Source: Xylographa opegraphella
Taxonomy: Eukaryota
Length of the DNA: 64,000 bases
Direction of reading: 5' to 3'
Assembly: GCA_022813865.1 (NCBI GenBank)
Contig: JALDZX010000004.1
Coordinates: 62,001-126,000 of the forward strand
Shown: positions 10,919 through 63,758 of the stretch, piece after piece
How positions within the stretch are numbered: the stretch's first letter is position 1
Layout: every line of letters starts with the position of its first letter
Translations under genes and position numbers: made by a program
The notes under the pieces: model-generated
Seen by the model: only the letters and a program-made list of their open reading frames with translations
What the model was told of the DNA's origin: nothing
Database searches by the model: none

Positions 10919-12628
10919 GGCCGGGTTAAGGAGAGAACAGATTTTTCACCAGACTGCTCCGACTGGATTTGTTCTTCTGATATAGACATTTGATGCCTGC
11001 TTTCCGTGCAGGCCAGAGCGGGGTCGTGGGCGACTTGGTGGCGTTCCATATTCGGCAAACAAGCAGCAGCGCTAGACTTAATTCGTATGGCTGATCATGT
11101 AAACGATAACCTAGCGCACAAATCCGGCCCAATTTGGGCGATGATGTTTCTTCGTCTTCTTTACTGCATGAAATCTGGAAGGTCATGCATGAAGCACTCT
11201 GCTGCGAGACCGCCTGGGCATCCTTGCGAACTACCTTCATACTCCCAGAGGCATCGTTATTATATGCTTCACAATGCGTGAAAATGAAACAATCGAGCCT
11301 CTTCCGCATGGAAGTATGGTGCAACTGATTGCTGGTGTCTTTCAGCCATTGACAACATTTAGTAAGCGAGTTACCGCAGGCGCTGTCCAGCATCACAACT
11401 GAATGAAGCACAAACAGACTGGGTGCTTGACATTGAAAGACTCTGGCTACACGATTCCCCGTCTCAGCTGATTCTTAGTGTTTATTAAATGTGCATCCTT
11501 TAAGCTTCTGATTCTTGTCAGTTTCGTTCTTGCTTGGCTGAAGCTTTCACTATCGAAAGTCATAAGCAACCCTGATTGATATCTTCACAGGTGTCTCGCA
11601 TCGTGAAACAACTCTCCAGGTATGAAAACACAGGATAACAGTAATACTCCCTCGAATCGGCATGCTTCTTTCCGGTAACGGGCGGTTGTCAAGGTGATCG
11701 CCGGTTGGAAGGATACAATGAGCTGTCTTGGACCTTTGTGCATGTATCATGGTATCAAACATGTCTTTTGAACAACGATGCAGCTGACCTGAAGTCGAAT
11801 TTGATGAAGATTGTGCGTGGACAAACCTTCTTTCTCCTGTAGTCTACGTTCAGTGAGAAGGCGAGTACATCGCGAACTTGCCTCCATTCGAGTTAAGAGG
11901 AGAAAGAAAAGCTAGAGAGACGCTCAGCATTCAAAATACATATTACTTGACCAAGACCAGATGAGCGAGCCGCTCTAGGAGAGTGTGTGCATGCCTTCCG
12001 CCAACATTAATCCGTACTGCTTGGGCTACCTCCATTGAAGCACAACGCGTCAAGCACAACGCGTCAAGCACCATCAGGCAGATTCGCAGACGGCAACCAA
12101 CTTCGCGGACCCTAGTTAATAGGCGATCCTTGTAACTGGAGTCCGAGCTGCAAACTCGGAGAGTTGCGTCTCAACCGGCCTGCGGAACCTCGGCGTTTTG
12201 TCTCACAATGAGCCTATCTGTTGTGCAATGCTAGAGGTTTTCCTGCAAGGTCTCGCAACGCCTCTGTGTGCCGTCTTGTCGACACGAGGGCTGCGTGAAG
12301 CGCTTGGAATGTCCATCAGTTTGCCATTTGGCTAAGACGCAGTCATGCGCAACCAAACTTTGGACAGAGAGTGGGGTTTGAAGTCTTGATTCGCCTTCAA
12401 GCACATTATCGGCTATGCCTAAGGGCTATCCAAGGTGTCAATCTTACATGGTCATTCCTTACATAGTCCTTCGGACACTGAAGGATGATCAGCCGTAGCC
12501 ATTGCTACCCATAAGTGGGTGGGTTGCGCCAGCCACAGATATAATGTCGCCACTCAATCAAGGGACACAACGCCGGCGCTAATCGCCTTCATATATTGAA
12601 TTATCTTCAAGTGGCGGGCCAGACCAGA

Positions 12629-55991: not shown

Positions 55992-56569
55992 GGGATGAAG
56001 CGAACGAGGAACTAGCTATTGTATACTGAATAATGACAGAAACTACTTGTAATATACGAGTCTCTAGTATAACACCCGTTGCTGATGCTTAACCACTAGT
56101 GAGCTCTCATTATCGAGATGATCACTTGATTTTGACCAGAGTCTTCAACGACAACATCAAGCATGGTATTATACCAAGAAAACGTGTAATACCACAGCAG
56201 TATAGCTTGCAATCCTTTGTTCGGAACTTTTCTATTTGTCACCATTCCCCTGCTTGCGTTCTCCAGTTTCATATGTGAGAGTAGCGATTTCACATACTAT
56301 ATTTCATGACCTCATCTTTGTGTGTCAAACCGAATCCGGAAGCTCATCCTTCACCATTCTTTTAGAGCTCCTGACATTTTTTCTTTGACAAACGTTGACA
56401 GTCCTTGATGAAATTTCTGCTCAAGCTGATTCTTTGTGATCGAACGTCTAACGAGAAATGGCTTATGGTTAAGAGGTATCACATTTCCTCTCTCGGCCAT
56501 AATTATTCGAGTCACCATATTCGATTGGCGCCTGGACTTATCCATGATTTTCAACCCAAATCTTTCACC

Positions 56570-57730
56570 ATGGCCGGGGTTCCTGACATTCCTCGGCAAC
56601 AATTCGTTCTGTTTGATGCTCTAGGTCTAGAGCCCACTGCTGGCATTATATCACGAGAAGATGTTACCGCAGCCTGGCGACGCGTGAAGAAGCTGCTCCA
56701 CTCTAGACGAGCTGCCAATAACAATGGATTCCTCCCTGCGTTTCCGACATTTGCACAAGCTCGGGATGCTTATCGTTACCTGACTGCGCATGGCGTAGCG
56801 AACGAGGAGAAAGAAGCGAGTCGTCGCATCACTCAACATCTCCGCACAGGCCGGGCTGCTTTCCGCAGTACTTGGAACCCCGCGGCTACTCCGGGAACGG
56901 CGGAAATCTTACTGCCTATACCCGGAGCTCCCACTGTGGAAACTGCGGGGCCGGCGCCTCCACTTGCTACAAGGCATGTGGGTCCCGAAATCACACCGCC
57001 GCGGTCGGACGGTGCAGGAGAAGATGGTAATGGGGCTGGGAGGCAACTCCGAGTCCTCGGCCGCCGGCCGAGCCAATTACTCCTAAGTCGCCAGAACAAA
57101 CTGAGCCTGGCTTGCACCCACCTGAAGACACCACCTTTGATTCATCCATCGGTTACGGCGCCACAGTTCCGCCACCTGCTCCAACGAGCCCCGGGCCGCA
57201 GGTTGTTCTTCTGGCGGTCTCCATTCCGCAAATTCCTCCTGGTCTAATCATGAATTTGGCTTGGCCTGGTGCGCCGCTCGCGAACCCGCGATTTCATGCT
57301 ACACCTAGGAAGTACTCGCGAGTGTACACTGAACCCGCAAGGCACGTAGGTGGTGAAGCGCTATGAAGGCATGTAGGTGGTGAAGCGCTACGAAGGCACG
57401 TAGATGGTCAAGCGCTACGAAGGCACTCAGGTAGTGAAGCGCTACGAAGATTGACATATGACGATTTGCGAAAGGTTTCAATGCCCGGGCGAATTGTGGT
57501 AGGGGACATTCTTGTGGGGTCACGCCACTTTGCGGTTCAAGGTCATCTTGATCGTACTGGAGCATTAAATTCGCCGCGTAAATCACGATGTTAATGGCAA
57601 AAATTTTCTTCCTCCTGGTGGTAGTGCAATCGTTCAATTCGAAAATACGAGATTGGTGGGCCCATTTCGGGATTGCCGAAATGACATAGACAGGTTGAGA
57701 AGCTTGGTTGACAGCGAACAAAGGCCGTAA
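56570..57730 (+). pseudogene. Disrupted gene with an N-terminal J-domain-like segment
   Basis: FDALGL...REDVTAAWRRVKKLLHS...FAQARDAYRYL; reading appears to continue via a frameshift near 57030, a TGA inside a repeat and a second frameshift near 57590. Confidence 0.5.
57339..57449 (+). repeat. Tandem repeat, 4 x 27 bp (RHVGGEALR-like)
   Basis: aaggcaYgtaggtggtgaagcgctaYg and variants; copy 1 has TGA where the others have CGA. Confidence 0.9.
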
Positions 57731-58157
57731 AGATCGAAAGGGGTCTGGTTCTGAAACGGACAGTTGCATTAGTATGCCCGAGACCCGAAATGGTGGTGCC
57801 TCAAATCGTACACGGTTCACTAAAGTGCCAGAAGTATTTATGGGAAACAGTCTACCGATAATCCAAACAATTTGACCGTATGGAAAGGCCCAAAAATATA
57901 TATGAGATGTGACAGATACTTCTTCTTGATGAAGCCTTGTGAATCAAACAGCTGCTTTAGCCTTCGTGCACTTTAGTGGCGTCAATAGTCAGCCCTACAA
58001 GCCTTGCCGTACTTAGGTACCTTACGGCACGGTCCTCAGCGTCATTCTACACATCAGTGCAATCCAATGGACAAGCGCTTTTCTGACAACTGCATTCTCG
58101 ATCTTTCTGAGATCTGTTAGGAGATTCATAAGCTTCTCCATGCCATAAAGCGCCAGT

Positions 58158-61100
58158 ATGCCGCCTGCGTATACACCATCACAAAAGAGCGCTATCGCTC
58201 AGTTTGTCAGCTTCACATCTGTCAAGGAAGGCGTGGCCGCAAAAGTGAGTCTCTGGGGACCGCCCTTGCAAGAAGAAATTCTTGTCACGACTCCGCGCCT
58301 ATGGCAAGAGCATCCGGCTAACGCTAGCCACCACAGCAACTCAAGGCGCACGGATGGAACGTGGAACAAGCTGTCGATGTGTACGTATCTATCACTTGCA
58401 TTGCATCACCTTCTTTGTATCATCTATCCAGTACCATATTACAGGACTCAGAATCCTTTGGGCAATATTCACTCCTGTCTGGGCTCTGGATTCAGGATCA
58501 GGCAGGTCAGGTCCATCACTCGCTCTGGACTTTGACACTGACCTCATATTGTCACTTTTGGAGACGCATTTACTATATCCGAGGAAGAAGATATGGATTT
58601 AGGAGAAGGGAGATCGCATTCCACGGTAGCAATACAGAAAAGAAGGCTTTATCGCCCGCCTATGGTTGAATATGGTCTCTTGGGAAATGATGGGCGTGGC
58701 CAGTCGATCAAATTGGTACCGGTCGATAACGACGGCGAAGATAGCCATCAAGTCCTTAGCACGCGAGACCATTCAGCCTCTCTTAAATTCTACTGGGAAG
58801 GGCTTATAAAGGATTACAAGGAGATGTACCTGAGTGATGAGGACCGCGAGAGGATCAACAATAATGAGCTTCGACCTTTGCTGCAGTCGTGGGTTAGAAA
58901 TGCGCAGGACCCAGTACATTGGATGACGTTTGAAAACTTGCCAATGCTGTTCAGATTCGCTTTACGGAGGCCACTCATGCCCGCCCACGCCCTGATCAAA
59001 CGTCTCGTTGAGATGGGGGTAATCGGAAAAAGTGCAGAAGACGTGGTAGAGGAACAAGATTGTTATGTGGTCAAAGAACGAAATTGCCATGTCAGCACGA
59101 AATACAAACAAAGAATATCGAAGGGGAATGCACTTGATGGGCCTCTTGTCACCTGGTTATATGATCAGCCACCAGTAGAACCTCCAATTGCGATTAAAGC
59201 TGAACGAAAAGTCAGCTTTGCCCTCGATTCATTAAGTGAAGAAGAGCGGGAACTTATCGAAGATACTGCCAATGCTATAGCACTGTGCAGGAGCGGTGGC
59301 TACACGCTTGAGCAGACTGTTGATATTTTGTATGAAAACTTCATAGGCTATGACTACGACTATCTGAAGTATCTTCCAGATATTGAATCAGGCGGTACCA
59401 GTCCTCGCTCACTTGCGGAACGTATCTATGATGATACTCAGGAGGAAGCGCCGTTTATATTGGACAGCGATGATGACGAGCAGGTTGATGAAGACGAGGA
59501 CGAGGACGACAAAGTTATCAGAGAAGCCGCCAAGTCCATCTGTCTTTGCAGAAGCGGAGCTTGTACGCCTGCGCAAACCGTAGATTTGCTGTATGATCAA
59601 TTCATAGGATATGGCCATGACTACTCCAGGTATCTTCCAGCGATCACATCAGGGATGATGAGTCCAAATTCGCTTGCCAAACGTATTTATAAAGATACGG
59701 AAATGGAAGCTTCTCATGGAGTGGACGGAGCATACGAGGACAAAGTGAAAAACAACGAGCTCAAAACTGATGGCATTTCTCAGAATGAAGTGATTCCGCG
59801 ACACGAGTCTAAATTTCCGAAGGTCACAATCAAATTCAAATTTGACATCAAAGGTCGCTTTCAGCATATCTACCAGCAAGTCCAGATAGGTGGCATGCTG
59901 CCAAAAGAAGCCCTTTCGATGTTTCGATCGGCAGCTGAAAAACCTGATATCTCAGACAACGAGCTGGCCCAATTGATGGTTGAGCACAATATCCCATCTG
60001 ATTTATTCTTCAGCTGTGAAGACAACAGACCCGATATGCGAATTTCGAACACGTCAGAAGACCACTGTGAAGCGAAATCTCAGATCAATATCCCAGTGGG
60101 GCCACTGACACCTCAGGACTCTCGTCGAACATCGAAACTGCTCATTCCTCATCTCAATTCTACTTCTGTCGTTCGATTTGCCGAACCTGATACACCCCCA
60201 GAAGATCTGTGTCCTAGAGTTGATAGTGAGCAAGGCATGACCCTACCGTCTGACACCTCTGGTGATGAAAAGACGGAGATGTTGATACAAGCTCTACAAA
60301 AACTAGTGGATCCCAAGGCATATGATTGCTTGTGCATTGATGACTCTAGTGAGGAACCAGAATTAGCCAGCCCTTTCTTAGAGGAGATCCACGACATAGC
60401 TGTTGGACATAAAGAACACGAAGAGTGTTCAGCAATCGCAAATTCGATGACTGTTGCTACAATCCCAGAAGCAGGCCCTGAAGCCGAGATAATCAACCCT
60501 GAAATCTGTAACACTAATGACCAAGTGTTCGGTCTTTCTGACCTGGCCGGCGGTACGTCTTTCTTGTCAAGGGCTTCCTTCGCGATGAGACCAGTCAAGA
60601 CTGCAGTTGAGGTGATGATGCCCCATCTTGAGTCTGGCAGCAGCCATCGCGCCAGGATACGGCACGAGACAGATTTCGGAAGTAAATGGGATGATTCCAA
60701 TCCAGATTTCCGCAAACATGATCGATCGGATTGGGAGGGTTATGCTCAAGGCGGGGCTGGGGCTCCGCCAGATGATTATGCCTTTATCTGTGAGCAATCA
60801 AGCTCCCCAGAGTGTGGTGAAACTACGGCTTTGTGGGGATTGGCGATGCCCACGAGGAAGGCAAGGGAGCTCGGTGCAAACATTGGCTTGTCAACCGACT
60901 ACGTACATGAGAACTTTCGGTCCAGCACACCAAACCGTGATGCCGCTCGGAAGAGGAGCAAGCTAAGCGAAAGGAGATCCATACCTTACCTCAAGAGAAA
61001 AAGCGAATCTTTACGCTCTAATCATAGGATGCACAAGTCACGAAAAGGCAACGAGGTCACTATGTTTGCCGAAGATGATGACGACCAGATAAGTTTTGTA

Positions 61101-63758
61101 GAGAAGCGTCTGAGGGCACCAACTCCCATGGGTCAAGTGGGTTCGCGGAGCCCCTGCAGCATATGCGAATCGTATACTTGCAATTGTCGTCAACTTGAGA
61201 CTGGTCGACCAAAAATGAGGCTTGTTAGTGCTCTGCCCTCCATCGAGCCCAGCGATTCTTCAACGCGAGCAGATGTCTGCTCGGTTGCAGAAAGTGCAGA
61301 GTTCGAAAGGGAATGTCGTGCGCTGGCACGGTACACTATACCAGTCATGGAAACCCAACAAACTTGTCAACCATCAGCTCATGACAAAAGGCGTATAGGC
61401 TGTAGTGCAATGGTGAGAAAAGACTCTCCATTTTCGCTTAAGCCTGGCGATTGGACTGAAGCATGTACATTCGGAACGCAAGGCACGCCGGGGCTCGTCA
61501 AAGACTTCGTCAATTGGAGAAGTGAATGGAATCAAACAGATGACGATCGAAACGACTCTCTATCTCAAAAAGTGGAAATGAGCCCTGAAGAACCAGCTTC
61601 GACTATTATAGACGAGGGGACAATTGTGCGACACCCCGAAGCCCCTAACTTATCTCTACTAGCATCGACGTCCTCAATTGGTCCGCAAAGTGAAGCTACA
61701 AGTTTGGCTCCTGTTGGTATATGGCCAGTTCCAAAATCCAACAAGTCGATCAGATATTGGGCGGGTAAAGATAATTCCAGTGAAATGGGTGCTGAAGCCA
61801 GATCTGAAGCGCAATCAACGAGCCGTAGTATACGTAATGGATCTATATCCACTACATTCCTACCTTTGACCATCGGAAGCCCAATAGAAGAGATCGAAGA
61901 ATCAGGTTTGGATACACATTTATCATCAGATATAACTTGGAAGCATACCGCGCGACCAGCTGTCGTAGCCAGGAGATGCTCAGTCGTCACTACAATGAGA
62001 AGCCTCACAATTGACGGGGAAGAACCATCTCTGCCAGCTTCATCGCACTCACAGCCAAGACCCTCTGGTTATATCGAAGTGAACTCTGCTCATTTTACAG
62101 TTGAACATATTGAAGACGTGTCGCCGGTAAATTTGTTATCTGGTATATGCAGCTCGTCGGTACCTAATCCACGAGTTGGAACGTCCGGAACAGCTGTAGC
62201 AGCCAAAGACCGAGTGAACAGTGAAGAATTACCTAATTTAACAGCATCGTCTTCAGAACCAATGAACACATCCTCCAGCTCTGTCGTTAGCATGGTCGAG
62301 CACTTTGGGGTTTCCTCAGCGGGTGATGCATCGCGCAGTACAGGACGTCCATTGTTCCAGGATCCACAAGAGATTGATCTACCAATTCCTGTTTGTCCTT
62401 CTTCCCCTCGGCCAGCGGCAGCACGACTTCCCCAAAAAGCACCAGTATTGTCGGAAGGCAATGACTCGTCGGACTCGCGTAATGCACTCTTAAAGTCGAT
62501 ATATATTTCCGATTCTCTCCCAGGAGCGAAGAACTTAGAACAAACAAGGCATGAATGTCTACCTTTCACTGTCTCGGCCCTGTTGAAGCGCAGCCGTGCC
62601 GAGTCCAATTCATCTCTAATACGGCCCTCGACTCGGTTACGCATCTCTTCCCCTGTTCGAGAGTCCAGCATACACCAAGATAACAGTGATGTAAGAAACA
62701 TTCAAGAAAATCACCATACACCTGACTCATTCTCATCGCTGTCAAGTTCGGCTCCAGTCAGCCATCCCCATAACATTGCTAAGGCTCGCAGAAGTACATC
62801 CAGTAAATCTAGACTCCTGGCCAAGATGGACCGGTACCTTGCGCGTGTTAAACGGCTCCCGGACGCAAAAGTGCAGCAGATAAAACCCTGGACTCAAGAC
62901 ACAGTGGAAGCCGCAGCTTGGAAATTTCGAGCGAGCCCTCGAGTGTTTTTGTGGTCTAAACGTCAAGATCGAGAACAAAGAAAACGACTAAATGCTAACC
63001 AAATGTCATATACTAGATATTTTCAGAATCCCTCAGCCTCCACAGGCAAATCAGGCACCACGTCCTCACTCAACAAACTCTTTGACAAATATAGAGGTAC
63101 ATTCATCCTTTTTTTTCTCTCCCCTAGCTTACCCAACTCACGTCCAACCTTAGATGACCCTGAATCCCCCGACACGATCGGCGCTGCCGGCACAATGAAA
63201 TACCTTATGGACCTCACACTCTCCCTCGACGAGCCTGTCGTCCTCGCCATCCTCACTGAACTCTCGGCCCCCACGATGGGCGAGCTTACCCGTGAAGGTT
63301 TCCTCGCTGGCTGGCGCGCCCTCGGCGCCGACTCTCTTCCCAAGCAAACCGCCGTTCTCCCACACCTGCGCGGCCAGCTGTCCGCCAACCCGGACTACTT
63401 CCGACGCGTTTACAAGCACACCTTCCTGCTCGCGCGCACACCGGGCCAGAAAGGTGTGGCCCTCGACACAGCAATCGAATTTTGGCGGCTGCTTTTTGGG
63501 AGCAGTGGCATACAGTGGAGGGGCCGCGACGGGACCGACTGGCTGGGCTTGTGGTGCGGCTTCGTGGAGGAACGGTGGAAGAAGAGCGTCAGCAAGGATA
63601 TGTGGGACCAGACGGGCGTGTTTGCGCTGAAGAGCTTGGAGGACGGCACGATGGCGTGGTGGAGCGAGGACGGGGCGTGGCCGGGCGTGCTGGATGAGTT
63701 TGTGGTGTTTGTGAGGGAGAGGAGGGGCGATGGTGGGGATGGTATGGATGTCGAGTGA
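58158..63758 (+). CDS. DCN1: Defective in cullin neddylation 1 (NEDD8 E3); exons 58158-58244, 58337-58380, 63017-63096, 63154-63758
   Basis: UBA-like N-terminus (AIAQFVSFT...AAK|QLKAHGWNVEQAVDV|YFQN) splices in phase to the PONY domain (LNKLFDKYR, G...YL.DL, FRRVYKHTF, AIEFWRLL, SKDMWDQ, EDGAWP..LDEFV). Confidence 0.9.
58593..63016 (+). CDS. Unknown ~1470-codon ORF inside DCN1 intron 2, in frame with the downstream DCN1 exons
   Basis: Stop-free for over 4.4 kb, contains a diverged internal 66-aa duplication; no recognised family. Confidence 0.7.

Follow-up and report, generated by a model that had tools for sequence, protein, structure and literature searches.

A giant open reading frame inside an intron of DCN1 in Xylographa opegraphella, fused in frame to the PONY domain, and its probable role as a second output of the gene

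DCN1 exons and the frame between them

Dcn1 is a co-E3 that promotes the transfer of NEDD8 to cullins. We analyzed a window of 64,000 nucleotides (nt) from Xylographa opegraphella (GenBank assembly GCA_022813865.1, contig JALDZX010000004.1, positions 62,001 to 126,000), in which DCN1 occupies 58158..63758 on the + strand, in window coordinates. The two halves of the gene, one for a UBA-like domain and one for the PONY domain, are separated by an intron of 4.6 kb. Inside this intron lies an open reading frame (ORF) that is conserved, is under purifying selection, is fused in frame to the PONY exons, and carries conserved splice signals at that fusion. Comparison with related loci suggests that the gene probably has two outputs, an ordinary UBA-PONY protein and a giant PONY protein.

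Exon 1 (58158..58244), read from sequence and frame, encodes the first half of the UBA-like domain and is followed by the donor GTGAGT at 58245. Intron 1 (58245-58336) is 92 nt long. After its CTAAC branch there are two in-frame AGs, 9 nt apart (58326-58327 and 58335-58336), and alternative acceptors differing by three codons (PPQ) are possible. Exon 2 (58337..58380) ends the UBA-like domain, and its final two bases are part of a Val codon (GAT GT). The X. soralifera protein P0003, near-identical in its exon 1-2 residues, matches the Pfam families UBA_4 (E 2.7e-7) and UBA_8; here and below, P-numbers denote proteins found in our searches, and L001-L009 denote metagenome loci. The canonical intron 2 (58381..63016, 4,636 nt) opens with the donor GTACGT (58381-58386) and closes with the branch GCTAAC (62994-62999) and the AG at 63015-63016. 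A first-pass annotation, made from the letters of this DNA, had placed the end of exon 2 at 58380, the donor directly after it, the same branch, a TAG acceptor at 63016, and an intron of this length; all were confirmed in the sequence, with the TAG at 63014-63016. Of the acceptors that match the phase of exon 2, only this AG, 4,636 nt away, is also conserved in relatives.

Exon 3 (63017..63096) would be an internal exon in the canonical mRNA and the 3' end of a giant exon in the long form. Intron 3 (63097..63153, 57 nt, GTACAT...TTAG) is in frame and stop-free and is spliced out in NCBI model P0002, and ORF-based readings of DCN1 silently gain 19 codons from it. Exon 4 (63154..63758) encodes the PONY domain and the stop codon. 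Pfam family PF03556 (Cullin_binding) matches ORF residues 1585-1706 at E 2.6e-29 with 102 bits against a cut-off of 27.9, and DCN1 chains in the PDB match the PONY part at E values from 3e-28 (8or2_F) to 9e-14. Residue 44 is the last of the UBA part of human DCN1-like protein 1 (8or2_F), and the segment that aligns with exon 3 (FFQNPE) begins at the next residue, 45. The two sides adjoin in the human protein, and the join of exon 2 to exon 3 is the canonical one.

The giant coding region (58593..63016, + strand) comprises about 1,475 codons from an ATG at 58593 and runs on without a break into exon 3. No stop interrupts its frame from 58542 onward, the preceding stops lying at 58533-35 and 58539-41. 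From the ATG to 63758 it spans 1,721 amino acids (aa), crossing the branch point, the acceptor, exon 3, intron 3, and exon 4. The stop-free frame of 1,721 aa described in the first-pass annotation is therefore present in the DNA, with the correction that intron 3 accounts for 19 of its codons (63097-63153); after splicing, the giant product from this ATG would have 1,702 aa. NCBI model P0002 ("Scaffold-type E3 ligase", 1,679 aa) begins at Met24 and is 100% identical to the ORF. In the five other frames of the region, the longest ORF has 203 aa. From base composition, the chance of the 1,738 stop-free codons is about 1e-38. GC content at third codon positions (GC3) is 0.44, inside the range of the other long ORFs of the window, and overall GC content is 0.48 against about 0.6 in the PONY exon. 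A Pfam search found no transposase, reverse transcriptase, or integrase domain in the window protein or in 20 homologues, Cullin_binding being the only family found in the window protein, and no terminal repeats were found. Both results bear out what had been noted from the letters.

Conservation of the giant region and of its junction with exon 3

A word-indexed search returned 10 relatives of the giant region. In seven diverged Xylographa-like relatives (four other named Xylographa species and three ENA proteins), the ORF is open, with 44-63% aa identity over 98-100% of its length (53% in one). The four named species reach 53-63% identity over 98-100% of the 1,470 residues. An exhaustive search with residues 1-1200 gave 71 clusters (50% identity) at E<=1e-3, 48 at <=1e-10, and 9 at <=1e-30. 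Named carriers are found in Xylographa, Ptychographa, Lignoscripta, Lambiella, Trapelia, Agyrium, Toensbergia, Alectoria, Letharia, Stereocaulon, Umbilicaria, and Heterodermia, and their giant regions match the family profile at E 1e-56 to 1e-286. Three carriers whose taxonomy was looked up belong to Baeomycetales, Pertusariales, and Rhizocarpales, and the distribution spans Ostropomycetidae and Lecanoromycetidae. Given the usual placement of the remaining genera, the named carriers fall into six Lecanoromycete orders in all. No named match lay outside the Lecanoromycetes, most of the roughly 70 homologues carrying no species name.

Over 882 codons without any indel, the intact ORFs of L003 and L009 are separated by 29 synonymous and 34 non-synonymous changes. 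The ratio of non-synonymous to synonymous rates (dN/dS), which the first-pass annotation had proposed as a check, is 0.35, and the departure from neutrality has a binomial p=5.6e-5. The inner ORF is a real, old coding sequence under purifying selection.

Exon 2 was found by tblastn in all nine metagenome loci at 71-100% identity, and exon 1 was found upstream of it at 69% identity in L001-L005 and L009. In lineages with only about 20% identity in the giant part, the UBA exons still show 69-100%. The order of UBA exons, giant ORF, and PONY exons is the same in L003-L005 and L009. Across the carrier loci L003-L009 the position of the ORF between the same exons is fixed, and by this comparison the locus is orthologous rather than mobile. 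Absence or early termination of the frame in relatives, resemblance to a transposon protein, and misassembly had each been raised as ways in which the fusion could prove illusory. In most relatives, the ORF is neither absent nor stopped before the acceptor, it does not resemble a transposon protein, and misassembly is excluded by the same architecture in many independent assemblies.

To read the junction itself, 76 representatives (P0003-P0078) were screened by pattern search for an exon-3-like tail; the unspliced ORF calls (ENA, Logan, JGI) run straight through the DNA and so keep the sequence of the junction. The tail was found in 56 representatives, and in all 56 it is reached in frame from the giant region; P0039, read by eye, also has a tail in frame. 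The residue directly before exon 3 ([YF]F) is R in 40 of the 56 and S in the other 16. R and S have little chemistry in common but share the AGN codon box, and this restriction can be read as the footprint of the acceptor AG. An [ATSP][ND] pair lies no more than 14 residues upstream in 56 of 56, against about 32% expected from the composition of the family, and its position is mainly -8 (34 occurrences) or -7 (20 occurrences). As judged from the sequences, this pair is how xCT-RAY appears at the protein level: a CTRAY branch point, as far from the acceptor as is usual. The donor of intron 3 served as a control of the method, leaving a constant Gly (G/GT) after KYR in the same ORF calls.

The same signals were read in DNA for five lineages. 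The branch and acceptor codon are GCTAAC and AG-A in the window, GCTAAT and AG-T in L003-L005, GCTGAT and AG-T in L009, GCTAAT and AG-A in L006-L008 (one lineage, 99.9-100% identical), and GCTTAC and AG-A in L001/L002, which have a short intron. A GTAYGT donor stands right after exon 2 in all five (GC/GTATGT, GC/GTACGT, and GT/GTACGT, exon end before donor). An acceptor inside a longer exon that is open in frame across it is a feature of hybrid exons, and it is present at this locus. Three things appear, from these comparisons, to be maintained together by selection: the UBA exons and the donor behind them, the acceptor far downstream, and a frame that stays open where it crosses this acceptor. 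Since the three are kept together, two products would be the simplest reading.

The giant ORF is not universal and, to judge from the loci compared, can be lost. L001 and L002 have a 456-nt intron at the same position (L001 2391-2846, L002 9659-10114), and a search of that intron for a relic of the giant ORF gave no signal (E 0.55 or worse). The gene models from Teloschistales encode short UBA-PONY proteins of the canonical kind. Short-intron DCN1 genes (L001, L002; P0125, P0162) read in frame into exon 3 for 100-150 codons. Two Teloschistales models have a KRK-[TA][ND]...R stretch just upstream of exon 3, reminiscent of the C-terminal end of the giant family, and this stretch may be a relic of a deleted giant ORF.

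Sequence and predicted structure of the giant arm

The N-terminal arm that the giant region would add to the PONY domain is rich in Ser, Glu, Arg, Asp, and Pro, with conserved islands at residues 113-136, 312-327, 733-837, and 1441-1459. In AlphaFold2 (AF2) models built from family alignments, the predicted local distance difference test (pLDDT) score is >=90 for 219 of 411 residues of the N-terminal part. These models indicate an arm that is mostly disordered, with small helical modules joined by low-confidence linkers. A conserved helical module is predicted at 58830..59033 (residues ~80-147), in blocks of pLDDT 84-96. The alignment places the N-terminal signature block of the family at 58929-59000 (residues 113-136). 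Tandem four-helix modules follow at 59220..59723 (residues ~210-289 and 300-377, pLDDT 86-97), separated by an acidic linker, and a three-helix module is predicted at 59847..59984 (residues 419-464, pLDDT 95-97); all these features lie on the + strand. The tandem pair looks like a duplication of a ~70-residue unit (LCRSG...QTVD...Y...SPxSLAxRIY) with an Asp/Glu-rich linker, and in the family consensus a single LYRSG copy is retained.

The best-conserved block of the family lies at 60789..61103 (+ strand), with an SSSPE-G...LWGL...ARELG...TP-R core, a basic KRK-S stretch, and an acidic FAEDxDD stretch. Most of the 71 matches of the exhaustive search score best here, and within it AF2 predicts a small strand-plus-three-helix unit at residues 739-793 (pLDDT 92-97). 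A basic KRK stretch and a CxxCxxxxCxC cluster lie downstream of this middle block. The C-terminal conserved block (62913..63016, + strand) doubles as the branch point and acceptor of intron 2.

The arm matched no known family or fold in the searches that were made. Pfam gave nothing beyond Cullin_binding and UBA for the window protein and 20 homologues. A profile of 49 homologues found no match among PDB sequences (best E 0.6), Foldseek found none in the PDB for two AF2 models at E<=0.001, and the ESM Atlas gave no usable match for the arm. In the VIA wide structure search, the N-terminal model scored best at Z 5.8 and 5.4, against generic small helical bundles. Two assignments were considered. 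A homeodomain likeness of the middle block appeared in Foldseek rows at E 5-9 only and was not trusted. The repeated helical modules, modelled within the N-terminal AF2 model, were considered as possibly UBA-like or CUE-like, and no support for this was found. AF2 predicts four helices in each (pLDDT >90), Pfam gave no UBA or CUE match, and the best structural matches were generic small helical bundles at Z<=5.8.

Two further ORFs lie just upstream of DCN1, at 56405-57247 (+ strand, 280 aa) and 57305-57820 (- strand, 171 aa), the former within a GC-rich stretch (up to 0.62). No Pfam family was found for either of them or for the minus-strand ORFs of 147-203 aa inside the region.

Probable products of the locus and relation to known systems

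We consider it fairly probable, on comparative grounds, that this is a DCN1 gene with two outputs, canonical UBA-PONY and giant PONY, kept across the Lecanoromycetes. Transcripts that include exons 1 and 2 would splice the strong donor at 58381 to the acceptor at 63016, lose 4.6 kb, and code for a regular Dcn1 with UBA and PONY domains. Where the 4.4-kb stretch is retained, translation from about the ATG at 58593 would take it as one huge exon running through the embedded branch point and acceptor into exon 3. Normal removal of intron 3 would then give a protein of about 1,700 aa in which 1,470 N-terminal residues stand in place of the UBA domain. The long form would most likely come from its own transcription start near or downstream of the exon-2 donor; when the upstream donor is missing, the embedded acceptor would stay silent, as in a hybrid first/internal exon. 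The giant arm probably serves as a scaffold or targeting arm for the PONY domain, bringing it to certain sites or cullin complexes that may be nuclear, by analogy with animal proteins discussed below. The core of the first-pass proposal, two isoforms from one locus with a region of about 1,470 aa before the PONY domain in one of them, is supported by comparative evidence, and the stage specificity that it also suggested for the giant form is pure speculation. A wider reading can be put forward only tentatively, as possible rather than probable: a 3-4.6-kb segment that serves as both intron and exon would have stood in Lecanoromycete DCN1 since before the orders diverged, with its splice signals kept as codons, and the giant PONY protein would be a class-specific neddylation adaptor for particular, probably nuclear, targets.

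Full UBA-PONY proteins of 255-274 aa are encoded on JGI contigs of 1.0-1.3 kb (P0103, P0104, P0105, P0120), and the P0120 cluster contains a Peltigera leucophlebia protein. These contigs are probably spliced transcripts in metatranscriptome assemblies. No exon-3 sequence match was found between these proteins and known giant carriers, the best identities being 0.54-0.77. As read from the contigs, the proteins are evidence of canonical mRNA in related fungi and not in a proven carrier.

With moderate confidence, based on the sequences at the 5' side, we favor a giant form that lacks the UBA domain. An alternative is a single constitutive protein in which the 1,470-aa region is a lineage-specific insertion in the linker between UBA and PONY, with a small intron after exon 2 and the long splice unused. 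In NCBI models P0003, P0093, and P0213 (exon 2) and P0221 (part), UBA exons are indeed attached to the giant region. A 58-nt GT..AG path in the window (58506-58563, branch CTGAC) could link the read-through from exon 2 to the giant frame, and in L003 and L009 an AG in phase with the canonical donor lies within its reach, 112-113 nt downstream. The ~60 nt past the donor (58381-58440) seem better conserved than the giant ORF: X. opegraphella and P0003 of X. soralifera agree at 17 of the first 20 residues of the read-through from exon 2, compared with 63% identity for the ORF. This stretch could be a splicing or promoter element. However, the models join the UBA pieces in at least five different ways, or lack them, as ab initio guessing would give. 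A paper on the genomes of several carrier genera describes ab initio prediction with funannotate, and the passages concerned mention no RNA-seq or other transcript evidence (PMC9098629). X. opegraphella is not named in the main text of that paper, and its link to the present assembly is not shown there. No unspliced ORF call has exon 2 in frame, its motif matching only the gene models P0003, P0093, and P0213. The path in the window must skip the consensus GTACGT for GTCAGG. Frame-preserving GT..AG paths from exon 2 to the giant ORF number 29, 15, and 18 in three lineages and use weak donors or purine-rich acceptors, and these numbers show how easily chance supplies them. The conservation of branch and AG in 56 of 56 would also be left unexplained. 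We regard a constitutive fusion of this kind as quite unlikely.

Slightly better placed, though still unlikely, is the use of one promoter with an alternative 3' splice site. The distal acceptor would yield canonical Dcn1, and the acceptor at 58563 would give a short UBA-only frame (exons 1-2 plus 35 codons), followed by translation of giant PONY through leaky scanning or reinitiation. The putative proximal intron (58381..58563, + strand, 183 nt) runs from GTACGT through a CTGAC branch to the first AG, which is out of phase with exon 2, as the first-pass annotation had already recognized. If this intron were used, a stop at 58669 would end the UBA frame after 35 more codons. In L006 a comparable proximal intron of 87 nt is likewise followed by a stop in the UBA frame (31 codons). 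Both introns fit the consensus, with the AG 22 nt past a CTRAY branch, and both stops fall near the giant ATG. On the other hand, no such intron was found by the same criteria in L003 and L009. Under scanning rules, a long overlapping upstream frame lowers translation of the downstream ORF, and a 79-codon upstream frame overlapping the giant ATG would make synthesis of a 1,700-aa protein inefficient. The remaining alternative, a nested gene, a transposon remnant, or a chance frame whose continuity with exon 3 is meaningless, is largely refuted and very improbable. The arm has no recognizable domain and its GC content is below that of the PONY exon; one lineage has decayed, and L001/L002 have only a short intron with no detectable relic. 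Against this stand the improbability of the open frame, the dN/dS value, the same exon-exon position in all carrier loci for which DNA was read, the lack of a stop ahead of the acceptor in all 56 homologues with a tail, and a GC3 like that of neighboring ORFs, with no transposon domain or terminal repeat.

Several points weigh against the two-product reading. The textbook proximal intron 58381-58563 competes with the distal acceptor. In L003 the ATG is only about 90 nt past the donor, leaving little room for an internal promoter, and this short distance keeps the route through a single promoter and an alternative acceptor alive. An intron of 4.6 kb is very unusual for DCN1, the other two here being 92 and 57 nt. 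The R/S and A-N footprints are read at the protein level for most lineages and in DNA for five only. In the pattern search, 20 of the 76 representatives have no tail (P0039 has one by eye): 13 fragments of 84-502 aa, the gene model P0037, which does reach PONY, and six proteins of 579-1,000 aa, which may end at a stop or a contig edge. The giant frame of L006-L008 is interrupted by two frameshifts and no fewer than four in-frame stops. Three of the stops lie in the conserved N-terminal part and the fourth near the end; in L006 (8658-12774, with the same in L007 and L008) there are TAG 9463, TAG 9526, and TGA 9976, a -1 shift near 11005, and further breaks. No intron signals were seen around the inspected stops, and exon 1 of DCN1 was not detected in these three loci; L008 has an additional 120-nt deletion. 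The long form may therefore be dispensable, or this copy may be dead. Finally, both mRNAs and the start of the long form are inferred from sequence, and the role proposed for the arm is an argument purely from analogy with animal DCN1-like paralogues.

If the two-product reading is true, the locus would be an unusually clear natural case of long-term dual coding, in which splice signals are kept within an ORF and remain legible as R/S = AGN. The long intron occurs in a fungal group in which introns are normally tens of bases long. Fungi are generally considered to have one simple Dcn1, and a giant PONY protein restricted to lichen-forming fungi would be a new cullin-RING ligase regulator and a single-gene counterpart of the animal DCNL paralogue family. 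Public databases already carry automatic giant-PONY models under a generic name. The public models at this locus are inconsistent (PONY-only, giant-PONY, and several arbitrary UBA-giant joins), which puts the gene counts and orthology tables of these genomes in error for DCN1.

Herein, we found no published description of this DCN1 architecture in searches of the literature on Dcn1 and cullin neddylation in lichen fungi or on Aspergillus nidulans DcnA. Canonical Dcn1, as in yeast Dcn1 and human DCNL1, has the same UBA-like and PONY architecture as that encoded here by exons 1-2 and 3-4. The difference is that the two halves are here 4.6 kb apart, and between them lies a conserved frame fused to the PONY half. 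Nested genes and transposon ORFs within introns are alike in having a long ORF within intron bounds; this one shares the strand of the gene and the frame of the following exon, lacks a stop of its own and any transposon features, and sits at an orthologous position across the class. Hybrid first/internal exons contain the acceptor of an internal exon within a longer exon, the longer one being used when the upstream donor is bypassed in transcription or processing. In the present case the longer exon would comprise 4.4 kb of coding sequence, the other DCN1 introns of this fungus are <100 nt, and the branch point and acceptor, which double as codons, are conserved across the class. The closest likeness in protein logic is with animal DCNL3, DCNL4, and DCNL5, in which the PONY domain is joined to non-UBA N-termini that direct localization, and a PONY domain with an alternative N-terminal region is likely the logic of the giant form as well. 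No sequence similarity between the giant arm and the N-termini of DCNL3/4/5 was seen. The animal paralogues are separate genes with short N-termini, whereas here one gene would supply both forms, with an arm of about 1,470 aa that belongs to no known family. The UBA and PONY parts are those of an ordinary DCN1, and what is unusual is the architecture of the gene and its giant arm.

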